Positions 45 to 23,267 are shown, counted from the first letter of the stretch. The stretch is 32,000 nucleotides of DNA from Bacillus subtilis subsp. subtilis str. 168 (GCF_000009045.1 NC_000964.3:4170001-4202000); one strand, 5' to 3'. Numbers and translations: made by a program. Notes: generated by a model from the sequence alone, not told the origin.

Positions 45-1352
45 ATGACAGAGGAGGTTTTCATCATGAGTCAAGAGCGCGTGAAACGGCCTGGGCATAC
101 CAGATGGTACATATCTTCGTTACTTAGCGGCATTATTATTCTTAATTATTTTGACCGAGTGGCCATCTCGGTAGCGGCCCCTGCGATACAAGATTCGTTT
201 CACCTTACTGCAACTGAACTCGGCATCGTGTTTTCCATTTACACCTATTCCTATACACTGATGCAGCTGCCTGTCGGAAGTTTGCTGGACCGTTTTGGGG
301 TCGCATGGGTCACGAGGGTTGGAATGACAATATGGAGCTTTTTAACGATCCTTCTTGCTTTTTTGCAAGGAAAATTGCTGTTGTATCTGTTCCGGTTTCT
401 CATTGGGCTGACGAGCGCCTCTGCGTTCCCTGCTGCCTCTAAAGCAACCGCTCTCTGGTTTCCTCCAAGTGAGCGGGGATTGGCAAACTCACTGTTCGAT
501 TCGGCCGCCAAGTTTTCAAATGTAATCGGCGCGCCATTGGTCGCCTTTCTTGTCACAACATTTGACTGGCGTGTCGCTTTTTTGACGATTGGATGCATCA
601 ATGTGCTGTTTACGATCTTTTTCTGGCAGTATTATGAACAGCCTGAACGGCACAAACGCATTTCTAAAAGTGAACTAAACTATATTCAAAAACACAATGC
701 CATTACAACAGAGCAAATCCCTTACAAAACGGGCCCGCTTTTAAAAAAGCTTTTCACCAATCGAAAAGTATGGGGCTTAATGATCGGATTTACAGGGTAC
801 GGGTATACATTCAACCTGCTGCTCACCTGGCTTCCGACTTTCTTTAAACATACATACGGTATGGATCTCATGTCGTCCGGTTTATTTACGGCAGTGCCGT
901 GGCTGATCTCAACCATTTCCGGAATTGCCGTCGGCGGCTGGCTCGTCGATTATTTTATTAAGAAAGGCTATCCTAATACCAAGGTGTACCGAACCGTAAT
1001 CATAGTCGGAATGAGCTTTGGCTTTTTCTTTTTAGGATCCATTCTGACGAACAATATTACCGTAGCCATTATTTGCATTTCCATCGGACTCGCCGGAATT
1101 TCCGCAACCGCTCCGGTCGGCTGGTCCATCTCCGCAGAACTCGCGCCGATCGGTTCCGTATCCATGCTGAGCTCCATGGTGAATCTCGCAAACAACCTGT
1201 TCGGAGGCATTATTGCTGCGTCACTGACAGGGTATTTGTTTGATGTGACAGGCTCCTTTACCCTCAGCTTTCTGGTAGCTGGTTTTGTGCTGTTGCTGGG
1301 ATTGGTTTTTTATGTGTTTGTATTAGGGGATGTAAAACGAATTAAACTATAG
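45..1352 (+). CDS. yybO: MFS transporter, anion:cation symporter (hexuronate/galactonate-like) subfamily
   Basis: ORF 18-1352. ATG 45 follows GGAG (33-36); an alternative ATG 66 follows GAGGAGG (51-57). Multi-TM protein with motifs GSLLDRFG and LWFPPSERG typical of ACS-type MFS carriers. Confidence 0.9.
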   Translation: MTEEVFIMSQERVKRPGHTRWYISSLLSGIIILNYFDRVAISVAAPAIQDSFHLTATELGIVFSIYTYSYTLMQLPVGSLLDRFGVAWVTRVGMTIWSFLTILLAFLQGKLLLYLFRFLIGLTSASAFPAASKATALWFPPSERGLANSLFDSAAKFSNVIGAPLVAFLVTTFDWRVAFLTIGCINVLFTIFFWQYYEQPERHKRISKSELNYIQKHNAITTEQIPYKTGPLLKKLFTNRKVWGLMIGFTGYGYTFNLLLTWLPTFFKHTYGMDLMSSGLFTAVPWLISTISGIAVGGWLVDYFIKKGYPNTKVYRTVIIVGMSFGFFFLGSILTNNITVAIICISIGLAGISATAPVGWSISAELAPIGSVSMLSSMVNLANNLFGGIIAASLTGYLFDVTGSFTLSFLVAGFVLLLGLVFYVFVLGDVKRIKL

Positions 1353-1357
1353 AACAT

Positions 1358-1392
1358 GAAAAAGAGAGCTGCCAGTTGGCAGCTCTCCCTTT
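1358..1392. terminator. Hairpin terminator between yybO and the convergent minus-strand remnant
   Basis: 10-bp stem GAGAGCTGCC (1364-1373) / GGCAGCTCTC (1378-1387), loop AGTT. A-run on the left gives a T-run on the minus strand; the T-tract on the plus strand is weaker. Confidence 0.6.
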
Positions 1393-1395
1393 ACA

Positions 1396-1635
1396 TCAAA
1401 GAATCGGCCCGTCCCCATTTACCTTCTCCTCGTCCTGTTCCTCTATATCAAGCCCCGAAGCTAGCATTTCCTGCTCTATCTGTTCGAGCACCTGCTCGTT
1501 TTTTCCTTGAAGACCACCTTCATAATGAAAAGCATCCTGTGTGCCGTTTTCCTCTATTGTCGCTAAAATATCGTGGATATCATTATGGTCTCCTGAAATG
1601 GAGCCGAATCCCTGGTTTTGTTTTTTATAATTCAC
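1396..1635 (-). pseudogene. Orphan 3' end of an unknown gene (acidic C-terminal tail); probably a truncated remnant
   Basis: 79-codon ORF starting at GTG with no SD. Its frame stays open upstream to ~1680, where homology to yybH begins. The stop abuts a good minus-strand terminator. No family recognised. Confidence 0.35.
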
Positions 1636-1677
1636 AAAACCGCTGGGGAGGTTGTTTCCGAGGTTTACACATGATGC

Positions 1678-1793
1678 GCTCCGAGTAGTAATTCATCAGT
1701 GTATCAAAATCTTCATTTTGGATTGCCACATCACATGCAGAGATGATGTCTTTCAATTGCTGTTCCAAATGAATTCCCCTAATCATCATGATT
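1678..1793 (-). pseudogene. Duplicate of the yybH 5' end (RBS plus first ~35 codons), truncated
   Basis: 1689-1808 aligns to 8067-8186 with ~4 mismatches in ~120 bp. It translates [37 protein letters not shown], then diverges and stops (...RFCEL*). Confidence 0.75.
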
Positions 1794-1853
1794 GGATATA
1801 TTATACAATGTTTGACACGTAGGGATCCTTTTCATTTTTGTTTTTACGGTTTC

Positions 1854-2090
1854 GCTGGTCCATTTCCGCAGAGCTGGCGCCGATCGGTTCCGTATCCATG
1901 CTGAGCTCCATGGTAAATCTGGCAAACAACCTGTTCGAAGGCATTATTGCGGCTTCATTGACGGGGTATTTTGTTTGATGTGACAAGGCTCCTTTACGCT
2001 CAGCTTTCTGGTAGCCAGTTTTGTTCTGCTGCTTGGATTGGTTTTTTACGTGTTTGTCTTAGGGGATGTAAAACGAATTAAGCGGGAATA
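1854..2090 (+). pseudogene. Decayed copy 2 of the yybO 3' end
   Basis: Aligns to 1120-1352 at roughly 88-90% identity by eye, with small insertions that break the frame (TATTTTGTTTG, GACAAGGCTCC). Ends ...AAACGAATTAAGCGGGAATAA. Confidence 0.85.
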
Positions 2091-2096
2091 AAGAGT

Positions 2097-2135
2097 GCTT
2101 GTAGAGAAAACGTTGTTCTTTCTACAAGCTTTTTA
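2097..2135 (+). terminator. Rho-independent terminator after yybO copy 2
   Basis: Stem GCTTGTAGA (2097-2105) / TCTACAAGC (2121-2129) followed by TTTTT (2130-2134). Confidence 0.6.
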
Positions 2136-2166
2136 GTTTTGTGCTGTTTTTCAAGATATTCAGCTG

Positions 2167-2785
2167 TCATAAAAAGAAAATGAGCTCCCACATACCGGCT
2201 AGGTATGTGGCGTTCTTCTTCATGTTCTGGCATGCAGCTGTGAGGAGGATTTGTTTGCTCACCCCCTGAACCTGCGATAGCTAAGCCCGTGCAGTTGTTT
2301 TGAACCTACAAAGCTTCGTTCTATTTTTTCTTTTCTTTTTTTAGAGATTTCCTGAAATAGAAAAGCAATCTTTTCTAACCTTTTCTTTATGGTTTTGCCA
2401 TACATACCGAGTAACGACTTTCTGGCGTTTCGTTGATTTTGTGTAATATTCTCAAACATATTTCAGGATTTGATTTATATGACCGATAGTCTTTGCGATC
2501 AATTGTTGAGTACGTAAGTGTATGCTGATTCAACAAATGTATCTGTATTGTTCACTTTATAATGAAATTTCCATTTTGGAAGCAAACCCCTGACTGGGTG
2601 ATAACGTCTATGTGCGATGGCACCAAAAACTTGGAGGTCAAATAGTCCTTTAGAGATGAGAGTTGTTAAGTAGCCGGAATCTAGAGCGACGGCTTCTACT
2701 TGAAAATCAAATCATGCAATTTAGTGATCCAATCGGTCAAGGTAGGGCTTGGAACAGAATCATGGACTTTTCTGGAGTTGCAAAC
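2167..2785 (-). mobile_element. Degenerate C-terminal half of a DDE transposase (IS1182/IS5-superfamily type), multiple frameshifts and stops
   Basis: Minus-strand translations in shifting frames: VHDSVPSPTLTDWITKLHDLIFK; FQVEAVALDSGYLTTLISKGLFDLQVFGAIAHRRYHPVRGLLPKWKFHYK; KKRKEKIERSFVGSKQLHGLSYRRFRG; VSKQILLTAACQNMKKNATYLAGMWELIFFL*. The D(A/S)GY and ...HG.RY.R.RG...LLTA.CQN.KK tail is the hallmark I recall for this transposase group. Confidence 0.7.
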
Positions 2786-2889
2786 TATTAATCGTCCTCA
2801 TTAAATTTATAATAAAAATATTCTCAATTGAGCAAATCGCCCACCCTTTTTCCTTTATAACATAAAATCCAATACTATCAATAAAATTC

Positions 2890-2918
2890 TTTACAGGTTA
2901 TTACAGTTAAGATATAAT
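2890..2918 (+). promoter_or_regulatory. Candidate sigmaA promoter upstream of the yybN operon
   Basis: TTTACA (2890-2895), 17-nt spacer, TATAAT (2913-2918). This would give a ~190-nt leader before the yybN ATG. Confidence 0.5.
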
Positions 2919-3113
2919 ATAGTTAATCTTTTACGTAAAAGGAGGTTTTTATTACTTGTGTTGAAGTTTTAAATAGGAGTAACTCCATCTCCCCATTACG
3001 GTCTTCATTTAATTTCATCCTGAGTTTTATTTAGTTAGATATAAAAACGAAAATTTCACATTATTTTTAACTAACCGATAGTATAAAATATATATTGAAA
3101 GGATTGTAAAATT

Positions 3114-3551
3114 ATGAATAAATTCCTGAAGAGCAATTTCCGTTTCCTTCTTGCGGCTGCTTTAGGCATATCATTACTTGCTAGTAGTAATTTTATAAAA
3201 GCCAGCAATGATAACTATAAATTCCATTTACTTGTACCTTATGGCTATGGTAATGCCTATTCAAATGATGCATTTAGACAGACCACTCATACAGATAATC
3301 CTTGGAAAGTAAATTTACAGAAATCGGCAGAAGGTAAAGGTACAATCATGACATTTTGGTTGATTAACACAGGGAATAGTAAAATTCCAAAAGCTTCTAA
3401 AATACATAACGTAAAACAAGGAAGCGGAGCTCATTATTATCATGCAAATAGCCAGGGAAGCCATACATATGTAGCCTTAGCAGTTGAAAACAACAATTAC
3501 AGTGCAAGTTCTTATGGTATAGATGGTGTATGGGATGAAGAAACTTGGTAA
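3114..3551 (+). CDS. yybN: Small secreted protein of unknown function (Sec signal peptide, no lipobox)
   Basis: N-terminus [30 protein letters not shown]|SN (basic n-region, hydrophobic core, AXA-like site). Mature part is rich in N/S/Y/H/G/W. AAAGGA lies 10 nt upstream of the ATG. Confidence 0.85.
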
Positions 3552-3603
3552 ACAAGAACCTTCTAAAAACGTTGGCACCTTTTAGCCACGCGAAAAAATT
3601 TAG

Positions 3604-3640
3604 AATGATAATCTTTTTATAAGATTATCATTTTTATTTA
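3604..3640 (+). terminator. AT-rich hairpin terminator or attenuator after yybN
   Basis: 12-bp stem AATGATAATCTT (3604-3615) / AAGATTATCATT (3621-3632) followed by TTTTTATTT. Confidence 0.55.
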
Positions 3641-3664
3641 TTCTATTAAGAATTGAGTGAGAAC

Positions 3665-4420
3665 ATGGAAAGTCATATTTATCGCATTATCAAAAATAAA
3701 TTAACTATAATAATATTTACTATAATCATATTAATTCCTTGTGTTGATATATCACTATTGTTAATGACTAACACAGAATACCATCCTGCATATGCGTTTT
3801 TCCTTTCTGGCACTTCCGTAGGGCATGCTTCACAAATGATCCTATTATGGTTTCTTCCGCTTTATTTTTTGTTACTATGTGCTGACGATTCTATACAAGA
3901 TTATAAAACAGGATATCATTACATTCTTATAAGCAAAGTTGGCAGAAAAAAATATTGTTTGGAAAAAATATTTACCTCTTTTATCATTTCATTTTTGACA
4001 ATGTTTTTGTCACTAATATTAAACTTTTTATTGGTTCAGGTTTTCTTTTTTAAAGGTACATTTAAAAATGACTTAGACCAAATTAAATTCCCTGATAACA
4101 GCCTTTATACTTTTAGTATGGCCCATCCTTATATAGCAATTGTGTTATTTTCTATTATTTGTTGTATTATGTCTGGATTTGTTGGAGCACTTGGTTCAAG
4201 CCTCAGTTTACTTTTTCGTGATAAGAAGTATGCCTACCCAGCAAGTTTTTTTATTTGGTTCGTACTTATACTAAAAAACAAATCATTAATGTTTTTATTC
4301 CAACCGTTTACAGAATACGGTTATAATGTACTTCTCCCTATCCTATGTTTGTCTATCTTTATTTTTCTAATAATAATTTCTAGTATTGTTTTATATGAGG
4401 CAAAATACAATGAAAATTAA
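3665..4420 (+). CDS. yybM: Polytopic membrane protein, ABC-2 / lantibiotic-immunity-like permease subunit
   Basis: ORF 3653-4420; first ATG at 3665. About 6 predicted TM segments. Its end overlaps the yybL start. Confidence 0.85.
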
Positions 4421-5120
4421 AAGACTACTATTAATTTTATGTTTACTACTATTTTTAGTTACTTTATGGTTCAACCAGAACCACACTTATCTTGGAAAGA
4501 ATTCTATCGCGTCATTACTATATATGAATAATAGTACATTCGGATATAGTTCAATATTTGCATATACCTTGTTTTATATTGTCCCGTTTCTTATGTTACT
4601 TAGTAACTTTTTTCATTCAGAAAACCCCTACAAAGTAATGAGGATGGTTAAGCGTAAAAATTACTACAAGTCTAAAATTATGGAGATTGGGTTTGTTTCT
4701 TTACTTTTTTCTTCAATACATACTGTTATTAATATTACGTGTACACATATTTTCTTTAGTAAAAACTTGTTGGTCGAAGCAAACTTTTTATCAATTTGTT
4801 TATTAAACATGATTAGTTTAGTGTTTTTCTACTTATCAGTAGGTATTATGTTTAGACTTACATACGATCTGTTTAATTCAGTAGCATTAGCAATTTTTAT
4901 TGTGTATATAATTTTAGATAGCTTGTATTTCGGCGTTAAATTATTACTTCCTAATGGATATTGGGAACCCTTTAGAGACTTGGCTATATTCACAAATATG
5001 CTCAATAGATATTGGTCAACTTCAAATCTTATAATAGTTTATATTAGACAGATAATAATAGTTTTTATTTTTTATTTAGTTGGATCTTCAATTTTTTTGA
5101 ATAAGGATTATAAAAAATGA
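4410..5120 (+). CDS. yybL: Polytopic membrane protein, ABC-2-like permease subunit
   Basis: ORF 4386-5120. ATG 4410 is preceded by GAGG (4397-4400) and overlaps the yybM stop (4418-4420). Multi-TM. Confidence 0.85.
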
Positions 5121-5872
5121 GGATTAAAGGCTTTTTCATAACTTTAGTTGCGATAATATTTCAGGCGTCATTATCGAGTTATAATAATAATAAAAATGTC
5201 TTTCCTTTTTTAGATGGCATACCAATAAGCACCTCGGGTCATTATGAGTATCAAAATATTTTATTGTGGTTTGTACCTATTGTTTCCCTAAGTTTTTGTT
5301 TCTCTGGGAGTATTAGAGATACATACATTTCGTATGAGCAATTAAAGTTAGTAAGAGAACATAGTAGAGTTAAATGGGTAACATCTCAATTCTTAATAAT
5401 TACAGTTGTACTTTTAATCTTTACTTTATCTCAGATTGCTATATTTTATATTTATTCACTTGTATCTCTTCATAACCTTGATATTAATTCCGTTATCAAT
5501 AAAAGATTTGTTATGATGACACTCATGTATTATCTAACCTTACTTAACTTATTTAGTTTTCAATTATTTATGGAGCTTTATTATAAATCTCAAATAGCAC
5601 AATTAAATATAAGCGTTTATATTATTTTTTCGTTAATTTTAGCAAAGAAGTTAGTGCAATTAAATTCTCCGAAAGTTATTCACTACTTTTTAATTCCAAA
5701 CTACAGTAATGGATTAAGAACTGGGTTAAGCTATTATTCCCAATCTGGAACTGCTATTATTGAACCATTATTAGGTTTGTTTATTATAATCATTTTACAG
5801 ATTTCAATAGTTATATTATCTGTCTTAAAGTTCAAAAAAATAGATATGCTAAAAAGTGAGGGCTTACAATGA
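5117..5872 (+). CDS. yybK: Polytopic membrane protein, ABC-2-like permease subunit
   Basis: ATGA start/stop overlap with yybL (5117-5120). Multi-TM. Confidence 0.85.
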
Positions 5873-6525
5873 TTGAGGTATTAAACCTAACAAAAAAAAT
5901 TAAAAAGACTACAGTTTTAGATAATATCTCTTATACATTTGAAAAAGGAACAATTTATGGACTATTTGGGAGTAATGGTTCTGGAAAGACCATGCTACTT
6001 CGTGCATTATCCGGGTTAATAGTCCCTACTGAAGGGAGTATAACTATTAAAGGTGAACAATTACATAAAGATATCTCTTTTCCTAAAAGTGTAGGATTAA
6101 TTATAGAAAATATGCAGTTACTTCCTCAGTATGATGCTTTTACTAACCTTAAAATTTTGTCAAAAATTAAAAAGATCGCATCAGATAATGATATATTAGA
6201 TTCTATTAGTAGAGTTGGTTTGGAAAATTTTAATAGTGTAAAGGTTAGTAAATTCTCGTTAGGAATGAAACAACGATTAAATATTGCACAGGCTATTTTT
6301 GAAAAACCTGATATATTGCTACTTGATGAACCAACAAATGCGATTGATGAAAAAGGAGTTGCATTTGTTCATGACATTCTTTTACAAGAGAAAAAAAGGG
6401 GAGCTACCATTATTATTACTAGTCATCACAAGGAAGATATTATATCTTTATGTGACATTGCATTAGAAATGAATCATGGACGTCTAGAAACTTCAGAAAA
6501 AGTAATATATAAGAAAGATAGTTAG
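5869..6525 (+). CDS. yybJ: ABC transporter ATP-binding protein
   Basis: Walker A GSNGSGKT, signature FSLGMKQR, Walker B ILLLDEP, H-loop TSHH. ATGA overlap with yybK; GAGGG RBS. Confidence 0.95.
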   Translation: MIEVLNLTKKIKKTTVLDNISYTFEKGTIYGLFGSNGSGKTMLLRALSGLIVPTEGSITIKGEQLHKDISFPKSVGLIIENMQLLPQYDAFTNLKILSKIKKIASDNDILDSISRVGLENFNSVKVSKFSLGMKQRLNIAQAIFEKPDILLLDEPTNAIDEKGVAFVHDILLQEKKRGATIIITSHHKEDIISLCDIALEMNHGRLETSEKVIYKKDS

Positions 6526-6680
6526 TTTAAACTGGCTATTTCTTATCCAATGATAGACTGCAGACAAGTTCAACTGCTGTAATGCTAGAAAATCCAATGA
6601 AATGCTGATAATTGCGAAGAGATATGATCAGTCAGAAAACAAATCTTAAAAAGAAAAAGTAAATTCATCAATATTTCTAA

Positions 6681-6854
6681 TAAACCTGGCAAACAACCTG
6701 TTCGGAGGCATTATAGCTACTTCACTGACGGGATATTTATTTGATGTGACAGGCTCCTTACGCTCAGCTTTCTGGTGCCGGTTTTGTGTTGTTGCTGGGA
6801 TTGGTTTTTTATGTGTTTGTATTAGGGGATGTAAAACGAATTAAACTGGAATAA
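6681..6854 (+). pseudogene. Decayed copy 3 of the yybO 3' end
   Basis: Aligns to ~1181-1352 and to 1914-2090. Two single-base deletions break the frame. Ends AAACGAATTAAACTGGAATAA, sharing the GAATAAAGAGTGCTTG tail with copy 2. Confidence 0.85.
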
Positions 6855-6884
6855 AGAGTGCTTGCTGAAAAGCACTCTTTTTCT
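6853..6884. terminator. Bidirectional terminator (yybO copy 3 / yybI)
   Basis: 11-bp stem AAAGAGTGCTT (6853-6863) / AAGCACTCTTT (6870-6880), with T-runs on both strands. Confidence 0.7.
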
Positions 6885-6899
6885 GCATCGAAAGAATAC

Positions 6900-7688
6900 T
6901 TAAGATAAGTCACTCCCAAAAATCGTAACAGTCTGACGGTTAAACATAAACCTCTGCCCGTTCCATTTTAATACGGTTTGAACATATCCCAATGAGTCGG
7001 CGTTATACCTTCCCGCTATCCGCTGGTACGCCAATAATTCGTATACGCCGTCTCTGTCAAAATCAACCGGATACAAGCCCGATAAAGGATTCACCCATCC
7101 TTCTATCGGCATTTTTAACACACCTTGGCTGTTATAAATCTCATTCAAATATTCCCTGCCCTTGTAAGTAAGGTCGAGGATATACGTTTCGTTTTGCTGA
7201 TGACTGATAACGCTCGCTTTATATTGATTTTGATACCTCACACTGTACTTTAATTCATCATTCAATACATCTGAATTGAAAATTCGCCGGAACTGCCTGT
7301 TTAGATAGGCAAACACATATGCATAAATAGCACCGCCGCTTCCCCCTGTGTCCATTACTACTGCCACATCCTCAATCTTGTCGCCTGTCATATCCCCCAG
7401 AAAAAGTGACGGATTGTATCCCATATTGTTTTGAAGCTGAATCCGCTGCTCCTGATGGGTTCTGCCATCACGGATCACCAATGTGATATTTCTCCATAAC
7501 GGGCTGCCGGGCATTTGATTTCCAGTTAGAAAGACCTCGTCAATAACGCCGTCTCCCGTTACATCGCCGCGGGTAGATACAATGATTGCACGTGAGGAGA
7601 CAGGCTGCCGAAATACGTATGGATGTTGAACAAGTCCTCTGCCTTCATAAAACCAATAAGGAGCCATTCTGATGTCATACACATTCAA
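6900..7688 (-). CDS. yybI: Protein with FG-GAP/VCBS-like Asp-Gly repeats (recalled as a spore-coat-associated protein)
   Basis: ORF 6900-7697. TTG at 7688 lies 6 nt after GGAAGGTG. Repeats DVTGDGVIDEVFL, GDMTGDKIEDVAVV, DFDRDGVYELLAY. Confidence 0.85.
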   Translation of the reverse strand: MNVYDIRMAPYWFYEGRGLVQHPYVFRQPVSSRAIIVSTRGDVTGDGVIDEVFLTGNQMPGSPLWRNITLVIRDGRTHQEQRIQLQNNMGYNPSLFLGDMTGDKIEDVAVVMDTGGSGGAIYAYVFAYLNRQFRRIFNSDVLNDELKYSVRYQNQYKASVISHQQNETYILDLTYKGREYLNEIYNSQGVLKMPIEGWVNPLSGLYPVDFDRDGVYELLAYQRIAGRYNADSLGYVQTVLKWNGQRFMFNRQTVTIFGSDLS

Positions 7689-7755
7689 TTGTGTCACCTT
7701 CCCTAATCAGCTGAATGAATCATTATATGCAGGAATGGCACATCAAAGACATATC

Positions 7756-8145
7756 TTACACACCAATTAAATCCGTACCATATGAATTATCAATTACACA
7801 AAGCCACTCGCCTTGCGCATTCTTTTTAAATACATAGGTCGCCCTTCTTTCCATCGCATACTCGGAGTCCTTTTTATCCGAATCAAGCAGTGTCTGAGAA
7901 AGAACGAGTACCGTGTCACCTGCTTCCAACAGGATCATTTTCCCTTGTGTCGGGACAATATGATGATTGAAATAGTTCGCAATCGTGATAAACGCTTTTT
8001 TGATTTCTTCCTTGCCTCGCGCGATCATGCCCGGCTTCACAACTAAAACGGCATCTTCCGAATAATAATTCATCAGTGTATCAAAATCTTCATTTTGGAT
8101 TGCCAAATCACACGCAGAGATGATGTCTTTCAATTGCTGTTCCAA
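7756..8145 (-). CDS. yybH: NTF2-like (SnoaL/DUF4440-type) small protein
   Basis: ORF 7756-8166. TTG at 8145 is preceded by GGGGGA. About 130 aa alpha+beta cone-type sequence. Family call is from memory. Confidence 0.8.
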
Positions 8146-8290
8146 ATGAATTCCCCCAATCATCATGATTGGATATATTATACATCGCTAGACCACTGAA
8201 ACCTTGAAAACAAAATGAAAAGTATCCTTTTTTCCTATATAATCAAATAGATATATTTAACAAAGTACCCAAGTGAAGGGGTGAACATTA

Positions 8291-9130
8291 TTGTCTGCGG
8301 AAGTAACGTTACATGACAATATACATTATGATTTAAGTGCGGATTGCCAGCACTGTTTTGGCCTGTGCTGTGTCGCCTTGCCTTATGCGAAGTCGGCAGA
8401 TTTTGCTTTTGATAAAGACGGGGGCACGCCTTGCCGCAACTTACAATCAAACTATCAATGTTCTATACATAAAGATCTCAGAGAAAAAGGATTTCGAGGC
8501 TGCTCTGCATATGAATGCTTTGGCGCCGGCCAAAAAGTATCCCAAATCACTTATGAGGGAAAGGATTGGCGAAACAGCCCCGAAACGGCCAACCAGATGT
8601 TTGACGTTTTTCCTATCATGCAGCAGCTGCACGAAATGCTCTGGTATTTACATGAAGCTCTTTCTATAGATATAGCCAAGCCGATTCATTCTGAACTGAG
8701 AACCACTTTCGAAAAAATAGAAAGGCTCACCAGACTCAGCAAAGAACGCTTGCTGACACTGCAGGTGGACGAGCATCGAGCTGAGGTCAATGAATGGCTG
8801 TTAAAAACAAGTGAACTGGTGCGTGCCCAAGCCCGCCATCCAAAACTCCCGAAAAAGGTCAGCCGGGGAAGTGTCCTGATCGGCGCGAAACTGAAAGGGC
8901 TTGATCTGCGAGGAGCAAATCTAAGAGGGGCGCTGCTCATAGCCGCCGATCTGAGAAATGCCGATTTGAGAATGACAGACTTTATCGGTGCAGATATGAG
9001 AGACGCTGATCTCAGCGGCGCCGACCTGACCGGGAGCATCTTTTTGACACAGGCACAGGTGAACGCCGCCAACGGCGATTCGAATACAAAGCTGCCGCTG
9101 TCTGTACGAACCCCTGCCCATTGGAAATAA
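8291..9130 (+). CDS. yybG: Pentapeptide-repeat protein with Cys-rich N-terminal domain
   Basis: TTG start after AAGGGGTGA. N-terminus CQHCFGLCCVALPY...PCRNL...CSIH...GCSAYECFGAG. C-terminus GANLRGALLIAADLRNADLRMTDFIGADMRDADLSGADLTGS (A(D/N)LXX repeats). Confidence 0.9.
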   Translation: MSAEVTLHDNIHYDLSADCQHCFGLCCVALPYAKSADFAFDKDGGTPCRNLQSNYQCSIHKDLREKGFRGCSAYECFGAGQKVSQITYEGKDWRNSPETANQMFDVFPIMQQLHEMLWYLHEALSIDIAKPIHSELRTTFEKIERLTRLSKERLLTLQVDEHRAEVNEWLLKTSELVRAQARHPKLPKKVSRGSVLIGAKLKGLDLRGANLRGALLIAADLRNADLRMTDFIGADMRDADLSGADLTGSIFLTQAQVNAANGDSNTKLPLSVRTPAHWK

Positions 9131-9160
9131 AAAAGGACCCGCTAACGGTCCTTTTTTACT
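9128..9160. terminator. Bidirectional terminator between the convergent genes yybG and yybF
   Basis: AAAAAAGGACC / GGTCCTTTTTT stem around the loop CGCTAAC. Confidence 0.7.
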
Positions 9161-9162
9161 GA

Positions 9163-10377
9163 TCAATTCAATCCTTTTTCGTTCCTCTTATCCGGCATTT
9201 TCACACTTCTTGCCAAGTATCCCGACAGCCATAACGCAACCAGCAGCATGAAGGTGATCATACCGACGACGCCCAGCCAGTGAAAACCAGACCAGAATAG
9301 CCCTCCGATTGTTCCGAAAACACTTGAACCGGCGTAATAAAAGAACAAATACAGCGATGAAGCCTGTGCTTTGTTGTGAAGGGCTCTCCTGCCCACCCAG
9401 CTGCTGGCAACTGAATGCCCTCCGAAAAAACCGAATGTAAAGAGGGCAATCCCCAGAATTTTCACTGCCAGCATATTGTTTATCGTAAATAACGCACCTG
9501 CAATGACGATGAAAATATTCATCACCAATATTTTCGGATAGCCATACCGATCAACCATTCTTCCAATGAAAGACGAGCTGAAAATGCCTACAATCATCAC
9601 AATAAAGATCCAGCTGGAAAATGCTTTATTAAGCGAATACGGCGGGCCCAACAGCACATACACAATGTAATTAAACAAGGCAACATTGCTTCCAAGCAGC
9701 AAAAAACCAATGAGAAACAAGCTGAATAGTTTACGGTCCCTCAAGTGGCCGATCAGAGACATTCCCAATTTCCCGAGCTTCAATTTTCTTGGCGTAAAAT
9801 GCCTGGATGGCGGCAAATTTATAAAAAATATAACACTAGCAATCAAACTAATGACACCAATTGTCCCCATCGCCATATGCCAATTCAAGTACTCGCTCAG
9901 GAGCCCGGAAACGATCCTTCCGAAAACGGCGCCGATTGCATTTCCGCTGATATATAGCCCCATCGCTGATCCAAGACTTCCGGGTTCAATTTCTTCCCCA
10001 AGATAAGCCATCGCAATCGACGGAAGGCCTGCGAGCGCAACGCCTTGAATGGTTCTCAATACGAGCAGTGTATGAAAGCTCGGACTAAAGGCCGATGCCA
10101 GACAGAGAACCGATGCGGCCAGCATGGAAATACCCATAATAGGCTTGCGTCCCCACACCTCGGATAATGAACCAAAGACAAGCATGCTCACAGCTAACAG
10201 CATTGTGGTAACAGATAAAGAAAGACTCGCCGCAGTAGGCGTTACATGAAATTCCCGCGTGAATTCCTCCATGAGCGGCTGTACGCAATATAGAATCGCA
10301 AATGTATTGAAACCCGCAGCGAAGAAAGCAAACGTAATTTTTCGAAAAACCGGTGTGCCTTTTCGAATGTATGTCAT
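9163..10377 (-). CDS. yybF: MFS transporter (YnfM-like)
   Basis: 12-TM profile; MFS motif A GSLSEVWGRKPIM. Confidence 0.9.
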   Translation of the reverse strand: MTYIRKGTPVFRKITFAFFAAGFNTFAILYCVQPLMEEFTREFHVTPTAASLSLSVTTMLLAVSMLVFGSLSEVWGRKPIMGISMLAASVLCLASAFSPSFHTLLVLRTIQGVALAGLPSIAMAYLGEEIEPGSLGSAMGLYISGNAIGAVFGRIVSGLLSEYLNWHMAMGTIGVISLIASVIFFINLPPSRHFTPRKLKLGKLGMSLIGHLRDRKLFSLFLIGFLLLGSNVALFNYIVYVLLGPPYSLNKAFSSWIFIVMIVGIFSSSFIGRMVDRYGYPKILVMNIFIVIAGALFTINNMLAVKILGIALFTFGFFGGHSVASSWVGRRALHNKAQASSLYLFFYYAGSSVFGTIGGLFWSGFHWLGVVGMITFMLLVALWLSGYLARSVKMPDKRNEKGLN

Positions 10378-10485
10378 CGGGACTTTATCGGTCCCTCATC
10401 ATGTTGTGGAGCACTGCCATTCATAAACAATCATCCTTTATTTCTTACGAATTCAAACATCCTCGAGTCTGTTTATATTATTATC

Positions 10486-10513
10486 TTAGCACCGTTGATA
10501 TATGTTGTATAAT
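10486..10513 (+). promoter_or_regulatory. Candidate sigmaA promoter for yybE-yybD
   Basis: TTAGCA (10486-10491), 16-nt spacer, TATAAT (10508-10513), in the divergent yybF/yybE intergenic region. Confidence 0.4.
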
Positions 10514-10563
10514 GCATATAAAATATCCTTTTCATGCTTATATGTAATAAGGAGAGATGATAA

Positions 10564-11442
10564 TTGGAATGGGAACAACTTGAATATTTTCAAACACTGG
10601 CCCGGATGCAGCACGTCACGAAAGCCGCAAAAAGCCTCTCCATCACACAGCCTGCACTTTCACGCTCTATCGCCAGGCTGGAAAATCATTTGGGCGTCCC
10701 GCTATTTGACAGGCAAGGACGATCCATCAGCTTAAATCAATACGGACACATTTTTTTACGACGGGTTCAGGCGATGATGAAGGAGTATACCGAAGGAAAA
10801 GAAGAAATCCAAGCCTTATTAAAGCCAGACCAAGGCGTAGTCTCTCTCGGTTTTTTACATACATTAGGCACCACGCTCGTGCCCGATCTCATCGGCTCCT
10901 TTCAGCAGGAATACCCCAACATTTCCTTCCAGCTGAAGCAAAACCACTCTTATTGGCTGCTTGAACGATTAAAATCCGGAGATCTGGACCTCTGTCTCCT
11001 CGCTTCGATTAAGCCTGAAAATCCGATCCAATGGATCAAGCTGTGGAGTGAAGAACTCTTTGTATTTGTGCCAAATGATCACCCATTAGCCAGTCGCGAA
11101 AGCATTACCCTGAATGAGATTGCCGGGGAGCGTTTTATTTTATTGAAAAAGGGCTATGCGCTTCGGATGACGGTCGATGAGCTGTTTGAGAAGGCCAATA
11201 TACAGCCGAACATTATGTTTGAAGGAGAAGAAGCAACTACTGCCGCAGGTTTTGTGGCAGCCGGTCTGGGCATATCTATTCTCCCAGACCTGAAAGGCTT
11301 AGACCAAAGCAAAATCACCAAAATCCGCGTCAGCTGGCCGGAATGTCAGCGTGTCATAGGAATTGCCTGGATAAAAGGCAGGTTTTTATCACCGGTTGCT
11401 GAGACCTTTAAACAATATGTGATCAGCCATTTTTCTGAGTAG
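10564..11442 (+). CDS. yybE: LysR-type transcriptional regulator
   Basis: TTG start 7 nt after AAGGAGAG. HTH LEYFQTLARMQHVTKAAKSLSITQPALSRSIARLE. Divergent from MFS gene yybF, the classic LysR layout. Confidence 0.9.
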   Translation: MEWEQLEYFQTLARMQHVTKAAKSLSITQPALSRSIARLENHLGVPLFDRQGRSISLNQYGHIFLRRVQAMMKEYTEGKEEIQALLKPDQGVVSLGFLHTLGTTLVPDLIGSFQQEYPNISFQLKQNHSYWLLERLKSGDLDLCLLASIKPENPIQWIKLWSEELFVFVPNDHPLASRESITLNEIAGERFILLKKGYALRMTVDELFEKANIQPNIMFEGEEATTAAGFVAAGLGISILPDLKGLDQSKITKIRVSWPECQRVIGIAWIKGRFLSPVAETFKQYVISHFSE

Positions 11443-11455
11443 GAAGGATTCAAGC

Positions 11456-11899
11456 ATGAATGTCAAAAAAATCACGTCAGAACAGGATTTACATACAGCG
11501 TTTGAAATCAGAAAGGCAGTATTTGTAGAGGAACAAGGCTGTCCCATTTCGGATGAATTCGATGAGTTCGATACACTCCACGGTGACTGCCAGCACATCC
11601 TGGCTTATCATCAGAATGTACCTGTTGGCACTGCACGTGTCCGTATCGTTGGCCACACGGGGAAACTGGAACGAATCTGCATTCTGAAGTCTTACCGCAA
11701 ATTCGGTTTGGGAAAAGTGATCGTCGATGCATTAGAACGTATTGTAAAAGAACAAGGCATTTCTGCCTTCAAACTGCACGGCCAGACACAGGCGGCAGGC
11801 TTTTATGAAAAGCTCGGCTATCGGACTGCATCAGAAGAATTTATGCTGGACGGCATTCCGCATGTGCTGATGACAAAACAAGACGATTCTGCGCTATAG
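11456..11899 (+). CDS. yybD: GNAT N-acetyltransferase
   Basis: Acetyl-CoA motif ICILKSYRKFGLGKVIV. About 65% aa identity by eye to the product of 14017-14463. Confidence 0.9.
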   Translation: MNVKKITSEQDLHTAFEIRKAVFVEEQGCPISDEFDEFDTLHGDCQHILAYHQNVPVGTARVRIVGHTGKLERICILKSYRKFGLGKVIVDALERIVKEQGISAFKLHGQTQAAGFYEKLGYRTASEEFMLDGIPHVLMTKQDDSAL

Positions 11900-11981
11900 A
11901 TTGTTCACAAATTTGTCACTTATGAGCATGAACGGTTCATTGGTATACTAATCACCGATTATGGAGAGAAGGAATGATTGT

Positions 11982-12461
11982 ATGCCAGCAAATAAAAAAG
12001 AAGGCCTTATATTTGGCGTGATGATGTGCTTTGGAATGGTTTGCGTCATGTCGATTTACAATGCCATCATCAACCGAGCCATCTACGATTTTTCACTGAT
12101 GACCGTTTTTGAAATGGTCATCGGTTTTATGATCGCCCTCCTGTTAGATTTACTGTTAGTGGGCCCCCTCGCCAAGAAGATTGCATTCCGCATGCCGTTC
12201 GACAAGACTAAAAAAATTTATGTCATCCTTGCCATGTCAACTTGTATGGTGATTGGCATGGTACTTTGTATGTCTGTGTTCGGTTTAGTGACAGCGGTTC
12301 TAGCAAATGGGCTGAACGGGGACAGCCTCTTCAGTGCTTATCTTATGATTGTGTTGAAAAATTTCATCCTGGCCTATCCGTTGCAATTACTGATTATGGG
12401 CCCATTAGTCAGAGGAGTTTTCATGAAATTTGTAAAACCAAAGCTCACAGCCGCAATTTAA
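11982..12461 (+). CDS. yybC: Small integral membrane protein (DUF2798-like)
   Basis: ORF 11961-12461. ATG 11982 follows GAGAGAAGGAA. 4 TM segments. Confidence 0.8.
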   Translation: MPANKKEGLIFGVMMCFGMVCVMSIYNAIINRAIYDFSLMTVFEMVIGFMIALLLDLLLVGPLAKKIAFRMPFDKTKKIYVILAMSTCMVIGMVLCMSVFGLVTAVLANGLNGDSLFSAYLMIVLKNFILAYPLQLLIMGPLVRGVFMKFVKPKLTAAI

Positions 12462-13941: not shown

Positions 13942-14016
13942 GTTTTAACCTTACTATTATAAGACCACATGCGTGCTGTACAGTCCAGACTAATATCAGA
14001 AAAGGATTGATTCATA

Positions 14017-14463
14017 ATGAATATAAAAAGAATAACAACTGAAGCTGATTTACATGAAGCTTTAAAGATTAGAAGAGGCGTTTTCATTGAGGAGCAACAT
14101 GTGTCTGAAGCCGATGAGTTCGATGAATTTGATACGCTTCAGGAACAATGCCAGCATATCTTGGTATATCATGAGAATCAGCCTGTCGGCACCGGACGCG
14201 CGCGCATCGTTGGCCATACAGCAAAGCTGGAAAGAATCTGCATCCTAAAACCTTACCGTAAGTACGGATTGGGGAAGATCATCGTAAGCGGGTTAGAGGA
14301 AATCATGAAAGAAAAAGGACTGACTTCATATAAGCTGCATGGTCAAACACAAGCGGCAGGCTTTTATCAAAAACTGGGCTACCAGATTTCTTCACAGGAA
14401 TTTATGGAGGACGGCATCCCTCACGTCTTGATGACAAAAGAAATATCGCGGAATATAACATGA
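14017..14463 (+). CDS. yyaT: GNAT N-acetyltransferase (paralog of yybD)
   Basis: Motif ICILKPYRKYGLGKIIV. Collinear similarity to YybD over the full length. Confidence 0.9.
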   Translation: MNIKRITTEADLHEALKIRRGVFIEEQHVSEADEFDEFDTLQEQCQHILVYHENQPVGTGRARIVGHTAKLERICILKPYRKYGLGKIIVSGLEEIMKEKGLTSYKLHGQTQAAGFYQKLGYQISSQEFMEDGIPHVLMTKEISRNIT

Positions 14464-15681: not shown

Positions 15682-15870
15682 ATCAATCTCCGCCAATCGA
15701 GATAATATTTAGTAAACTCGTTTCGATACTATTCAACAACAGCTTCCAAAAGTGTACTCTTTAAGAGAACAGCATTAGATAAGGCATCCATTACCTTATA
15801 TATTTCACTATCTTAATGAGGTATTTCAACAGAGGCTTGTGGTACAGTAAAAAGGAATAGAAACAAGAGA

Positions 15871-15981
15871 AAAGAAGATGAACCTATGCCCACTAACAAT
15901 AAACTCAATGAGAAATATCATACTTCCTTCAACTCGCCCACAACCCTGTTGACTAGTATCCGTGGAGAGAGGAAGCTTTGA
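15871..15981 (+). pseudogene. Most decayed copy (copy 1) of the yyaL RBS plus 5' coding end
   Basis: AAAGAAGATGAACCTATGCCCACTAACAATAAAC...CGCCCACAACCCTGTTGACT...GGAAGCTTTGA aligns to 21183-21310 with an ~18-bp deletion and many substitutions. Confidence 0.6.
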
Positions 15982-16091
15982 CACAGCTTCTGCCATTGAT
16001 GACATCTCTATTGAAGTATCCAAAGGACAACCAAGGATCGCTCTTTGACTTTTTCAAGAAGAAAGTAGAGTGAATAAAGGAGTGATTGAGT

Positions 16092-17252: not shown

Positions 17253-17398
17253 TACTATGGAATTATCAATATCAAATTTTCTGTAATAAAAGAGGATTGA
17301 AAAGGACGATGTCTCCTCAATTAACATCATTAAGCATTATAGTATATTTTCTTCTCCCTCTTTTAAGTAATCGGCTAAGTTTTGTATTTATAAAAAAA

Positions 17399-17575
17399 CG
17401 AAAGAAGGTGATCCAATGCCTACTAACAATAAACCCAATAGATTAATCGCTGAGAAATCTACTTATTTTACTTCAACATGCTCATAACCCTGTGGACTGG
17501 TTCCCTTGGGGAGAAGAAGCATATGAAAAAGCGAAACGCGAAAACAAGCCTGTTCTCGTATCTATTGGGTATAGC
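17399..17575 (+). pseudogene. Copy 2 of the yyaL RBS plus 5' coding end, frameshifted
   Basis: GAAAGAAGGTGATCCAATGCCTACTAACAATAAACCCAATAGATTAATCGCTGAGAAATC..., roughly 80% identical to 21183-21360. A 1-nt insertion creates in-frame stops. Confidence 0.8.
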
Positions 17576-19153: not shown

Positions 19154-19405
19154 AATAACTCCCCCTACATTTGATTGATATGATCTTATTATATATAGAC
19201 TAAGGATTAAACTTTTACTTTTTTTATAAAAATTTGACCAGATTGCGAAACAAGGAAAAACGTTATTCGCATTTATCTCAAGTGGCAAAATGAAACATTA
19301 GTTTATATTTTCACATCACAATTATCGATAAGCAGTCAGTTATTGTATTTGTTTAGGATAACTGTGGTAACCTGAATATAACCAACTTAGGAAGAAGGTG
19401 ATCCC

Positions 19406-19645
19406 ATGCCAAATAAAAGTAAACCCAATAGATTAATCGCTGAAAAGTCTCCTTATTTACTCCAACACGCCCACAACCCTGTGGACTGGTTCCCGTGGGG
19501 AGAAGAAGCATTTGCAAAAGCAAAACGCGAAAACAAGCCGGTTCTGGTCAGCATCGGTTATTCGACGACTTGTCATTGGTGGCCTGGGATAATCAAATCG
19601 TGTGGAACTCCATTAAAAGATAACAGAAGCCATTTTAAACGATAA
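19406..19645 (+). pseudogene. yyaO: Copy 3 of the yyaL 5' end (truncated paralog)
   Basis: 19388-19581 aligns to 21180-21370 with ~9 mismatches and a 3-bp insertion (CGA). [36 protein letters not shown]...[11 protein letters not shown], then unrelated sequence. Confidence 0.85.
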
Positions 19646-21126: not shown

Positions 21127-21197
21127 AGAAATAGGGAGTATTTTTGAGAAAATGTGTTAAGTTAAATATACACTAATTATAGGAAGAAGGTGATCCC

Positions 21198-23267
21198 ATG
21201 CCAAACAAAAGTAAACCCAATAGATTAATCAATGAGAAATCACCATATTTACTCCAACACGCCCACAACCCTGTGGACTGGTTCCCGTGGGGAGAAGAAG
21301 CTTTTGAAAAAGCAAAACGCGAAAACAAGCCGGTTCTGGTCAGCATCGGTTATTCGACTTGTCATTGGTGCCACGTGATGGCCCACGAAAGCTTTGAAGA
21401 CGAAGAAATCGCGCGTCTTCTCAATGAACGGTTTGTGGCGATTAAAGTCGACCGGGAAGAGCGGCCTGATGTGGATTCTGTTTATATGAGAATCTGCCAG
21501 CTGATGACCGGGCAGGGCGGCTGGCCGCTGAATGTGTTTATCACGCCTGATCAAAAGCCGTTTTACGCGGGTACATATTTTCCAAAGACGAGCAAATTCA
21601 ATCGTCCCGGTTTTGTTGATGTGCTTGAGCATCTGTCTGAGACGTTTGCGAACGACCGCGAGCATGTCGAGGATATTGCGGAGAACGCCGCTAAACATTT
21701 GCAGACCAAAACAGCTGCAAAAACTGGTGAGGGCCTTAGCGAATCAGCGATTCACCGGACATTCCAGCAGCTTGCCAGCGGGTTTGACACGATCTACGGC
21801 GGTTTCGGGCAGGCACCGAAATTTCCAATGCCTCATATGCTGATGTATTTGCTACGTTATGATCACAATACAGGGCAGGAGAACGCTCTATACAACGTGA
21901 CGAAAACATTGGACAGCATGGCGAATGGCGGCATTTACGATCATATCGGCTATGGGTTCGCCCGCTATTCGACCGATGACGAGTGGCTCGTTCCCCACTT
22001 TGAAAAAATGCTGTACGACAATGCGCTGCTGCTGACCGCTTATACAGAAGCCTATCAGGTCACGCAAAACAGCCGCTATAAAGAGATTTGTGAGCAGATC
22101 ATTACGTTCATTCAGAGGGAAATGACTCATGAAGACGGAAGCTTTTTCTCGGCTTTGGACGCGGACACAGAAGGAGAAGAAGGAAAGTACTACGTGTGGT
22201 CAAAGGAAGAGATTCTAAAAACGCTCGGGGACGATCTCGGAACGCTGTATTGCCAAGTGTATGACATCACTGAAGAAGGAAACTTTGAAGGCAAAAATAT
22301 TCCTAACCTCATTCACACAAAGCGAGAACAAATCAAAGAGGATGCCGGGTTAACCGAAAAAGAGCTCAGTCTCAAACTCGAAGACGCAAGACAGCAGCTC
22401 TTGAAGACACGCGAGGAAAGAACCTATCCGCATGTCGATGATAAAGTGCTTACCTCATGGAACGCGCTGATGATCGCGGGTCTTGCGAAAGCGGCAAAGG
22501 TATACCAGGAGCCGAAATATCTCAGCCTAGCGAAAGACGCCATCACATTTATTGAAAACAAATTAATCATCGACGGCCGTGTGATGGTCCGATATCGTGA
22601 TGGCGAAGTGAAAAACAAAGGCTTTATCGACGATTACGCTTTTCTCCTATGGGCTTATCTGGATCTCTATGAAGCTTCGTTTGATCTTTCTTATTTACAA
22701 AAAGCGAAGAAACTGACAGACGATATGATCAGCTTATTTTGGGATGAGGAGCATGGCGGATTCTACTTCACCGGACACGATGCAGAAGCCTTAATCGTAC
22801 GGGAAAAAGAAGTGTACGACGGCGCCGTGCCTTCAGGAAACAGTGTGGCAGCTGTTCAGCTGCTGCGTCTCGGGCAAGTCACAGGCGACTTATCACTGAT
22901 CGAAAAAGCGGAAACAATGTTTTCCGTGTTCAAGCCAGACATAGAAGCGTATCCGAGCGGCCATGCTTTCTTTATGCAAAGTGTGTTAAGGCATCTGATG
23001 CCTAAAAAAGAAATCGTGATTTTTGGCAGCGCAGACGATCCAGCCAGAAAACAAATTATAGCGGAGCTTCAAAAAGCCTTTAAGCCCAACGACTCCATTC
23101 TGGTGGCAGAGCAGCCCGAGCAATGCAAAGACATTGCGCCATTTGCAGCAGACTACCGCATCATAGACGGCAAAACAACCGTTTATATTTGTGAAAACTT
23201 CGCCTGCCAGCAACCGACAACAAATATTGAAGAAGCGATCCACACATTAATAAGCAGCAGGGATTAA
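21198..23267 (+). CDS. yyaL: Thioredoxin-fold (DUF255) plus six-hairpin domain protein
   Basis: [24 protein letters not shown] redox-like motif, [10 protein letters not shown]. 689 aa. Confidence 0.95.

Follow-up and report, generated by a model that had tools for sequence, protein, structure and literature searches.

Three direct copies of the yybO 3′ end in a variable, mosaic locus of Bacillus subtilis 168

Why should the 3′ end of a single transporter gene be present three times, always in direct orientation, on the Bacillus subtilis chromosome? The gene is yybO of B. subtilis subsp. subtilis str. 168, and the stretch analysed here, which will be referred to as the window, comprises 32,000 nucleotides of that genome (NC_000964.3:4170001-4202000) and covers the yybO-yybA region; gene content and exact-protein matches assign it to 168-like B. 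subtilis. An original prediction, made from the sequence alone, took the repeats for the footprint of two nested islands (insert A between the first and second copies, insert B between the second and third) that had inserted into the gene end and brought along a replacement for it, as seen at tRNA and tmRNA genes; the functional copy would then be the newcomer. Our analysis points to another answer. It is moderately probable that the three yybO ends are junction scars, left behind by alternative alleles of the same chromosomal interval that were added side by side and not replaced. A literature search of incomplete coverage retrieved no published account of the triplication.

Self-BLAST of the window and translation of the repeats clearly demonstrated three copies of the yybO 3′ end (1120-1348, 1854-2096 and 6681-6852), far above chance level and with pairwise identities of 86-92%. 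The individual matches were 1120-1345 versus 1854-2081 (91.2% over 228 bp, E=1e-71), 1182-1348 versus 6683-6847 (92.2% over 167 bp, E=2e-51) and 1914-2126 versus 6681-6887 (85.9%, E=4e-53). Copy 1 is translated in frame through ...DVKRIKL* and belongs to a gene whose exact protein product is present on many B. subtilis contigs. The other two copies are frameshifted, copy 2 by two +1 shifts (the run 1969-1972 is longer by one T, and one A is inserted at 1985-1986) and copy 3 by two 1-nt deletions at about 6758 and about 6776. Copies 2 and 3 carry CTGGCAAAC where copy 1 has CTCGCAAAC, have GGAATAAAGAGTGCTTG in common, and end with ...IK(R/L)E* followed by TAAAGAGTGCTTG. This last motif opens a hairpin, here called T3 (TAAAGAGTGCTTG...AAGCACTCTTT, −18 kcal/mol), which is complete in the window only after copy 3; the homology of copy 2 breaks off at about 2096-2101. 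The frameshifts, the sequence features common to copies 2 and 3, the single complete hairpin and the end of the copy-2 homology had already been recognized in the original prediction. Copy 3 is identical in one B. subtilis strain (L025) and in frame in a B. inaquosorum strain (L028).

Relatives were scanned with one genome per species, which yielded 17 Bacillus and Metabacillus loci with yybO. The tail IKLE* plus T3 was found in nine subtilis-clade loci, namely in Bacillus sp. N13C7, two B. spizizenii lineages, B. inaquosorum, B. rugosus, B. halotolerans, B. mojavensis, B. mexicanus and B. stercoris D7XPN1 (L015). It is typical of the clade, and copy 3 thus represents the ancestral type of gene end, as had been proposed. 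The arrangement with yybO directly convergent on yybI was also found: B. inaquosorum KCTC 13429 and Bacillus sp. N13C7 carry an empty site, in which yybO, T3 and yybI are collinear with window positions 6683-12000. Other relatives have a merR-like gene between T3 and yybI. Copy 3 is matched by most island-free relatives, whereas the left copy with its hairpin T1 is matched by B. tequilensis and by some B. stercoris strains, so that in this point the expectation held only in part. B. tequilensis has the tail of copy 1 (IKL* plus T1), followed by a gene referred to as geneX, small open reading frames (ORFs), an HSP20 gene, a gerPA-like gene and yybH, without yybI. The same allele, called type II, was detected in two B. 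stercoris strains, which were reached via homologues of a 79-aa ORF, and on a tequilensis-like contig (L032). CTCGCAAAC is the state of the B. subtilis/B. stercoris lineage.

A further configuration, alpha, was reached via YybM homologues and is present in three B. subtilis strains (L025-L027) and also in B. inaquosorum L028; the flanks of the latter locus share 99% identity with the species representative KCTC 13429. Alpha begins with yybO (436 aa, IKLE*) and a complete T3, and these are followed by about 45 bp, a region X of 640 bp, yybN to yybJ, a region Y, copy 3, T3 and yybI; insert A, copy 2 and a transposase relic found in the window are all absent. Neither a noteworthy ORF nor a match to plasmids was found in region X. 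When the genomic context of the exact YybO and YybI proteins was looked up (24 contigs each), only the arrangement of the window was returned, with no intermediates. The yybO-yybH interval is thus a long-standing variable locus in the B. subtilis group with at least four allele classes: yybO-T3-(merR)-yybI-yybH; yybO-T3-yybI-yybH; type II, yybO-T1-geneX...HSP20...gerPA-like-yybH; and alpha, yybO-T3-45 bp-X-yybNMLKJ-Y-'yybO(1182..end)-T3-yybI.

Two minor observations concern these relatives. In B. stercoris D7XPN1 (L015 10714-11289) the frame of yybO is broken, leaving only a 191-aa C-terminal ORF in a locus that is 1 nt shorter, which reflects either a frameshifted gene or a sequencing error. 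The 3′ end of yybI occurs in two versions (window 6886-6960; L015 12185-12260; L002 12279-12350). The ending of the window, …QRFMFNRQTVTIFGSDLS, is common only to merR-less alleles of the B. inaquosorum type; B. stercoris and B. spizizenii, which carry merR-type alleles, end with …RRFAVDRQNVSIVGGAVS. Over its remaining length yybI matches B. stercoris with 98% identity, and this combination indicates a further recombination breakpoint inside yybI.

Judged by these comparisons, the window is a composite of type II and alpha island alleles. Native yybO, extending to 1348, is followed by a type II remnant, an illegitimate joint, copy 2, the relic of an IS1182-family insertion sequence (IS) and a diverged left half of the island, and the remaining part (right island half, copy 3 and flank) is 98-100% identical to alpha strains. 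Positions 1-1348 differ from yybO of the B. subtilis alpha strains L025-L027, which are devoid of insert A, at only 7 positions (99.5% identity), and the last 86 bp are identical. Over 164 aligned positions, copy 1 differs from the yybO end of B. subtilis strains without insert A at 1-2 sites. Copy 2, the most diverged of the three, differs at 13-20 of these sites from every orthologue and from the other two copies, and at 17-20 from the native yybO end. What this comparison does show is that copy 1 is native and copy 2 the outlier; with regard to the donor species of each copy, 7-20 differences do not resolve lineages. The coding part of copy 1 is hence native, with only position 1349 onward being new, which does not support the proposal that the functional copy is the newcomer.

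The island shows a corresponding partition. Between the window and alpha, positions 2796-5400 are only 85-92% identical, and positions 5500-12000 are 98-100% identical. Copy 2, the IS relic and the left island half all stand at about 10-15% divergence from the corresponding sequences of other B. subtilis strains (9-15% for copy 2 and the left half), which argues that they entered the 168-type lineage as one block. The donor of this block would have been a lineage about 10% diverged that also carried the island behind yybO.

Insert A had been regarded as an island in its own right. Its first positions (1349-1395) are 100% identical to B. stercoris L023 and contain T1, which folds with −21 kcal/mol on the plus strand and −27 kcal/mol on the minus strand. 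A terminator scan called T1 on the minus strand, on which it is the better terminator; T1 is the terminator of the convergent geneX. In B. stercoris L023 and L024 and in B. tequilensis a full geneX (115-131 aa) lies between yybO and yybH together with the remainder of the type II cassette, which comprises geneX, two small ORFs, the HSP20 gene, an 81-aa ORF and the gerPA-like gene. The geneX fragment in the window is 98.6-98.9% identical to L023 and L024 and 91% to B. tequilensis. Adjacent to it lies a second copy of the yybH 5′ end (yybH′), with 93% identity to window positions 8057-8193 and 98.6% identity to yybH of L023; it became joined to geneX, out of frame, through a deletion of 2.26 kb that left a near-blunt junction at 1679/1680. 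The final 34 bp (1820-1853) correspond in reverse complement both to CTGAAACCGTAAAAACAAAATGAAAAGGATCCCTA of B. stercoris and to window positions 8194-8227, and they abut nucleotide ~1118 of yybO in copy 2.

Taken together, positions 1349-1679 are 98.6-100% and positions 1680-1818 are 98.6% identical to the B. stercoris type II strains, but yybO beside the type II cassette in B. stercoris is only about 95% identical to the window, with mismatches up to position 1340. Because 1349-1818 is nearly identical to B. stercoris and the adjoining yybO is not, insert A is a deletion-shortened remnant of an alternative allele of the yybO-yybH locus and not as an island. The second copy of the yybH 5′ end, the 34-bp inversion and the alternative-allele tail at 1349-1679 had been overlooked in the first reading of the sequence. 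The coordinates of all features are compiled in Table 1.

Table 1. Features of the yybO-yybH interval in the window
Feature	Coordinates	Strand	Description
yybO	45..1352	+	Intact ORF, MFS transporter, 435 aa, Pfam MFS_1
Copy 1	1120..1348	+	Native yybO 3′ end; segment repeated in copies 2 and 3
Type II tail	1349..1395		End of yybO with its stop codon, followed by hairpin T1 (1359-1392)
geneX 3′ fragment	1396..1679	-	First gene of the type II cassette
yybH′	1680..1819	-	Second copy of yybH 5′ end, promoter and upstream region
Inverted segment	1820..1853		34-bp segment from between yybH and yybG; makes up the illegitimate joint to copy 2
Copy 2	1854..2096	+	5′-truncated yybO 3′ end, ...IKRE*, plus left arm of T3
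IS1182-family relic	2097..2772	-	Terminal hairpin and about 3′ 615 bp of the transposase gene, several indels
yybN promoter-like site and leader	2890..3113	+	TTTACA-17-TATAAT, leader about 190 nt
yybN-yybM-yybL-yybK-yybJ operon	3114..6525	+	G+C 25-31%
Y	6526..6680		Right-hand non-coding end of the island
Copy 3	6681..6881	+	5′-truncated yybO 3′ end, ...IKLE*, then complete bidirectional hairpin T3 (6853-6880)
yybI	6900..7688	-	Convergent on yybO
yybH and upstream region	7756..8227	-	Source-type sequence for duplicated 1680-1819 and inverted 1820-1853

Insert B contains the yybNMLKJ operon, an A+T-rich region already known to be bound by Rok, for which horizontal acquisition is assumed (PMC2978689). 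Its products are, in order, a DUF2712 protein, a DUF2705 protein, a 236-aa protein without family assignment, a second DUF2705 protein and an ABC ATPase. The promoter-like site at 2890-2918 is of a near-consensus sigma-A type (11/12 matches); lying about 190 nt 5′ of yybN, it fits the published 189-nt leader ncr1471 (PMC2965217). At the right end, Y is 99-100% identical among the window, B. subtilis L025 and B. inaquosorum L028, and the junction 6680/6681, at which at most about 5 bp are shared, is the same in all three. The island occurs with at least two haplotypes per half in recombinant combinations, indicating that it is old at the yybO locus and has been exchanged by homologous recombination. 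Since B. subtilis strains exist that have the island but are devoid of insert A, insert B is the older of the two.

The left border of the island had been placed at about 2101, where the transposase relic begins. This relic is real: across 676 bp, positions 2097-2772 match a region annotated as IS1182 family transposase on a B. subtilis plasmid (NZ_CP032858) with 79.5% identity, in both the transposase gene and the terminal repeat. It falls short of a complete IS, which would comprise both ends, an intact transposase and a duplicated target; what is left is one end and roughly 45% of the gene. Its terminal hairpin starts within the T3 loop, at the point where copy 2 ends. In strains without the relic, a complete T3 is followed by about 45 bp of chromosomal intergenic sequence, which matches the intergenic sequence of B. 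spizizenii, B. rugosus and B. mojavensis, and only then by island DNA. The break at 2097 consequently dates from a later event, in which the IS inserted secondarily into the T3 hairpin and a deletion followed, and the true left border of the island lies beyond an intact T3. On the plasmid mentioned above (L021 2476-2514, 4040-4078), an intact IS1182-family copy has the palindrome ACAGCAATTTAATTGCTGT on both sides; a hairpin apparently served as its insertion site and was duplicated in the process, an arrangement suggestive of terminator-like hairpins being the target of this IS group.

How could alleles come to be stacked in this way? In each step, chromosomal DNA of a different lineage would have entered the cell, most likely through natural transformation, and would have been integrated through homologous recombination on one side and by an illegitimate join upstream of the homologous anchor on the other. 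Such a process would correspond to homology-facilitated illegitimate recombination (HFIR) or to an equivalent Campbell-type single crossover of a circularised fragment. With one homologous and one illegitimate joint, the stretch of the anchor gene between the two joints is necessarily duplicated. In the simplest version of the second event, a type II B. subtilis would have received the island allele, anchored to the right of yybH and joined illegitimately on the left within the yybH upstream region; no crossover at 1348 would then be needed and the intact yybO would be native. The reverse direction of this event would give the same structure, and the present data would fit either direction of the individual steps.

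Several findings argue for stacking. The joints are illegitimate, as seen from the 34-bp inversion at 1853/1854, a border with little or no homology, and from the near-blunt deletion joint between geneX and yybH′. The repeated units are chromosomal alleles with intergenic DNA included, and the added DNA contains sequence of the same locus from another lineage. Both the yybO and the yybH 5′ repeats represent anchor segments that are duplicated directly around added DNA. Moreover, HFIR has been documented in other naturally competent bacteria (PMC6382021). The same source, which states that HFIR remains undescribed for chromosomal transformation of B. subtilis (PMC6382021), provides the first of several points that weigh against this explanation. 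An intact type II B. subtilis and the intermediate preceding the deletion, both of which the simplest version requires, were not found among the relatives. In B. inaquosorum L028 both repeats are inaquosorum-like, with 1 difference between them and 2-3 differences from the empty-site strain. A transfer in a single step from a B. subtilis-like donor does not predict this; either gene conversion must have taken place later or the donor must have belonged to the species, or else the repeats hint at duplication from recipient sequence. Between 1340 and 1349 there is a sudden change in identity to the type II strains of B. stercoris, so that a crossover at the very edge of homology is required in one lineage. 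Finally, the original insertion of the island may have involved an integrase that was lost or a larger element that has decayed.

An explanation that takes up this last point is site-specific integration at yybO by an element whose attP mimicked the last ~200 bp of the gene, which provided the gene with a new 3′ end and whose integrase was later lost. We regard it as unlikely, and it would apply to insert B only, leaving insert A wholly unexplained. By analogy of geometry, the closest known counterpart is e14 (and phage 21) in icd of Escherichia coli, with an icd′ pseudogene of 163 bp on the far side of the prophage (PMC6379469, PMC13626634). There, as at yybO, the functional 3′ end of the gene is kept and a diverged, 5′-truncated copy of the last ~160-200 bp is found in direct orientation beyond the inserted DNA. 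Recombination between the icd copies gives a chimeric icd (PMC6379469, PMC13626634), and recombination between yybO copies would likewise be predicted to give a chimeric gene. A protein-coding target is, given this precedent, not new in itself. An occupied and an empty site within B. inaquosorum (L028 and L003), the identical right junction in three lineages and a homologue of the island module near serine-recombinase gene fragments in B. mojavensis are also in line with site-specific integration. Unlike e14, which has an integrase, defined att sites and SOS-induced excision, the yybO locus has no recombinase, and no attP was found elsewhere. On these two counts it does not belong to the e14/icd class. 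Neither a recombinase gene nor a relic of one was detected in the beta (L019) and alpha (L025-L028) islands, in which Pfam hits were confined to DUF2712, DUF2705 and ABC_tran. No ORF of recombinase size is present in window positions 1353-3113 and 6526-6680 or in X of alpha, and DNA searches with 2090-3110 and X returned only the IS1182 relic or nothing. Sequence resembling the yybO 3′ end, as would be expected of an attP, was absent from phages and plasmids (BLASTN) and from the viral contigs of IMG/VR (peptide patterns), and no YybM relative was found in IMG/VR. With island DNA, the phage set gave nothing beyond distant Listeria matches, and plasmids contributed scattered ABC-ATPase hits; no free or mobile form, and no use of the same att site in unrelated hosts, was encountered. 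Homologous five-gene modules are instead located at unrelated loci in B. mojavensis and B. paralicheniformis. Furthermore, the repeat on the island side holds chromosomal sequence past the terminator, in alpha about 45 bp of merR-type intergenic sequence beyond T3, and one of the two inserts is another allele. An integrase-type insertion as at tRNA or tmRNA genes, to which the original prediction had likened the repeats, is not borne out by these results.

Three explanations dispense with an integrase. The least probable is in-situ tandem duplication of the yybO end, and of the segment from yybO to yybH, by replication slippage or template switching, with later insertions at the joints and decay of the spare copies. 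The 1853/1854 joint, at which the yybH upstream region meets yybO nucleotide ~1118, does have the topology of a tandem-duplication junction, and a 34-bp inversion is typical of template-switch events. The two units differ in content, however, one holding the type II cassette and the other the island plus yybI, and the covariation of the left island half with copy 2 argues for imported, already diverged material. Above all, copies 1 and 2 differ by about 9%, whereas strains without copy 2 differ from the window by only 0.5% in yybO, so that the divergence of copy 2 cannot have arisen in situ; on this arithmetic the candidate was rejected. Hardly more credible is a scheme in which a hairpin-targeting IS1182-family element in the yybO terminator brought in or captured the island, whether by cointegrate formation, in a composite element or by way of an unusually long target duplication. 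It would account for the relic starting exactly where copy 2 leaves T3, and a related copy on a B. subtilis plasmid does lie inside a palindromic hairpin that is duplicated on both sides. Target duplications of the IS1182 family extend up to some tens of bp, and the yybO repeat is with about 200 bp well above those known. The relic was rejected as the carrier of the island, since in alpha strains no IS sequence accompanies the island, copy 3 and the intact left T3; neither the island nor the copy-3 duplication thus depends on this IS. We give little credence, though slightly more than to these two, to the idea that the yybO terminator is an insertion hot spot for an unrecognised, recombinase-poor mechanism, for example hairpin-targeted insertion with target duplications of ~200 bp derived from the recipient. 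Both the inaquosorum-like repeats of L028 and a mirrored, four-copy series of yyaL-like 5′ ends 15 kb away would fit such a mechanism. If it were true, series of gene-end 'ghosts' would be the mark of a general, undescribed mode of cassette acquisition in Bacillus.

Returning to stacked alleles, the closest parallels are HFIR as known from Acinetobacter, Streptococcus pneumoniae and Pseudomonas stutzeri and Campbell-type integration in B. subtilis itself. These share with the yybO locus a homologous anchor combined with an illegitimate or microhomology joint, the addition of foreign DNA and the direct duplication of the anchor segment around the insert. In contrast to HFIR, the yybO case is deduced from natural sequence alone, and the joint with its 34-bp inversion is more complex than the usual microhomology joints of 3-10 bp. 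With tRNA and tmRNA islands the locus shares direct repeats of the gene 3′ end around an insert next to an intact gene, but yybO is protein-coding, a tyrosine integrase is missing, and the repeats are 165-230 bp long and 8-14% diverged throughout, with no identical core. As to the IS1182 family, positions 2097-2772 are homologous to the 3′ part of the transposase and the terminal hairpin and were inserted in a hairpin; unlike a functional element, the relic is truncated, degraded by indels and reduced to one end, and it is a secondary passenger rather than the cause of the repeats.

The yybO case is therefore real but fairly ordinary genome mosaicism, an insertion with duplication of a gene end, and no new kind of element. 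It would nevertheless provide a well-resolved natural example in the model organism B. subtilis of alleles that were stacked and not swapped, for which an empty site, an island-only state, an alternative allele and the composite are all represented as intermediates. It looks like the footprint of one-sided homologous recombination, a process stated in 2019 to be undescribed for chromosomal transformation in this species (PMC6382021). The locus also corrects a tempting misreading, as repeats of a gene end need not imply integrase islands. The direct repeats are predicted to permit loop-out that depends on RecA, either of insert A or of the entire 5.5 kb, resulting in loss of the Rok-silenced yybN island or in chimeric yybO alleles comparable to those of icd/icdC in E. 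coli.

Further observations concern the island and the remainder of the window. In B. mojavensis (GCA_035810775.1, L029 14007-16795) the yybN-like five-gene module is accompanied by a sixth gene (208 aa) and adjoins a NACHT gene, fragments of resolvase/recombinase genes, and RapH_N and Abi genes; this neighbourhood looks like one of a defence or mobile-element type and is unrelated to yybO. An 'rsmY-like' element has been predicted between yybO and yybN (PMC1488887). Rfam returned nothing at the gathering threshold for the whole window, including the yybN leader, and the prediction is thus without family support here.

A second series of gene-end repeats mirrors that of yybO, but with 5′ ends. 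The ribosome binding site and the first ~180-240 bp of a yyaL-like 689-aa ORF (21198-23267) are present four times in direct orientation (15855-15987, 17361-17572, 19345-19590 and 21138-21379), and divergence increases with distance from the functional copy (88%, 78-85% and about 70% identity). These copies are set apart by different modules, of which one holds two small genes, one a minus-strand, tetB-like MFS gene, and one a pair of merR-like and EamA genes. The four copies suggest that the stacking process was recurrent in the window. Another pair of similar regions, 11434-11881 and 13996-14442, is 71% identical over about 450 bp; judged from the Pfam context of related loci, these two appear to be paralogous GNAT acetyltransferase genes.

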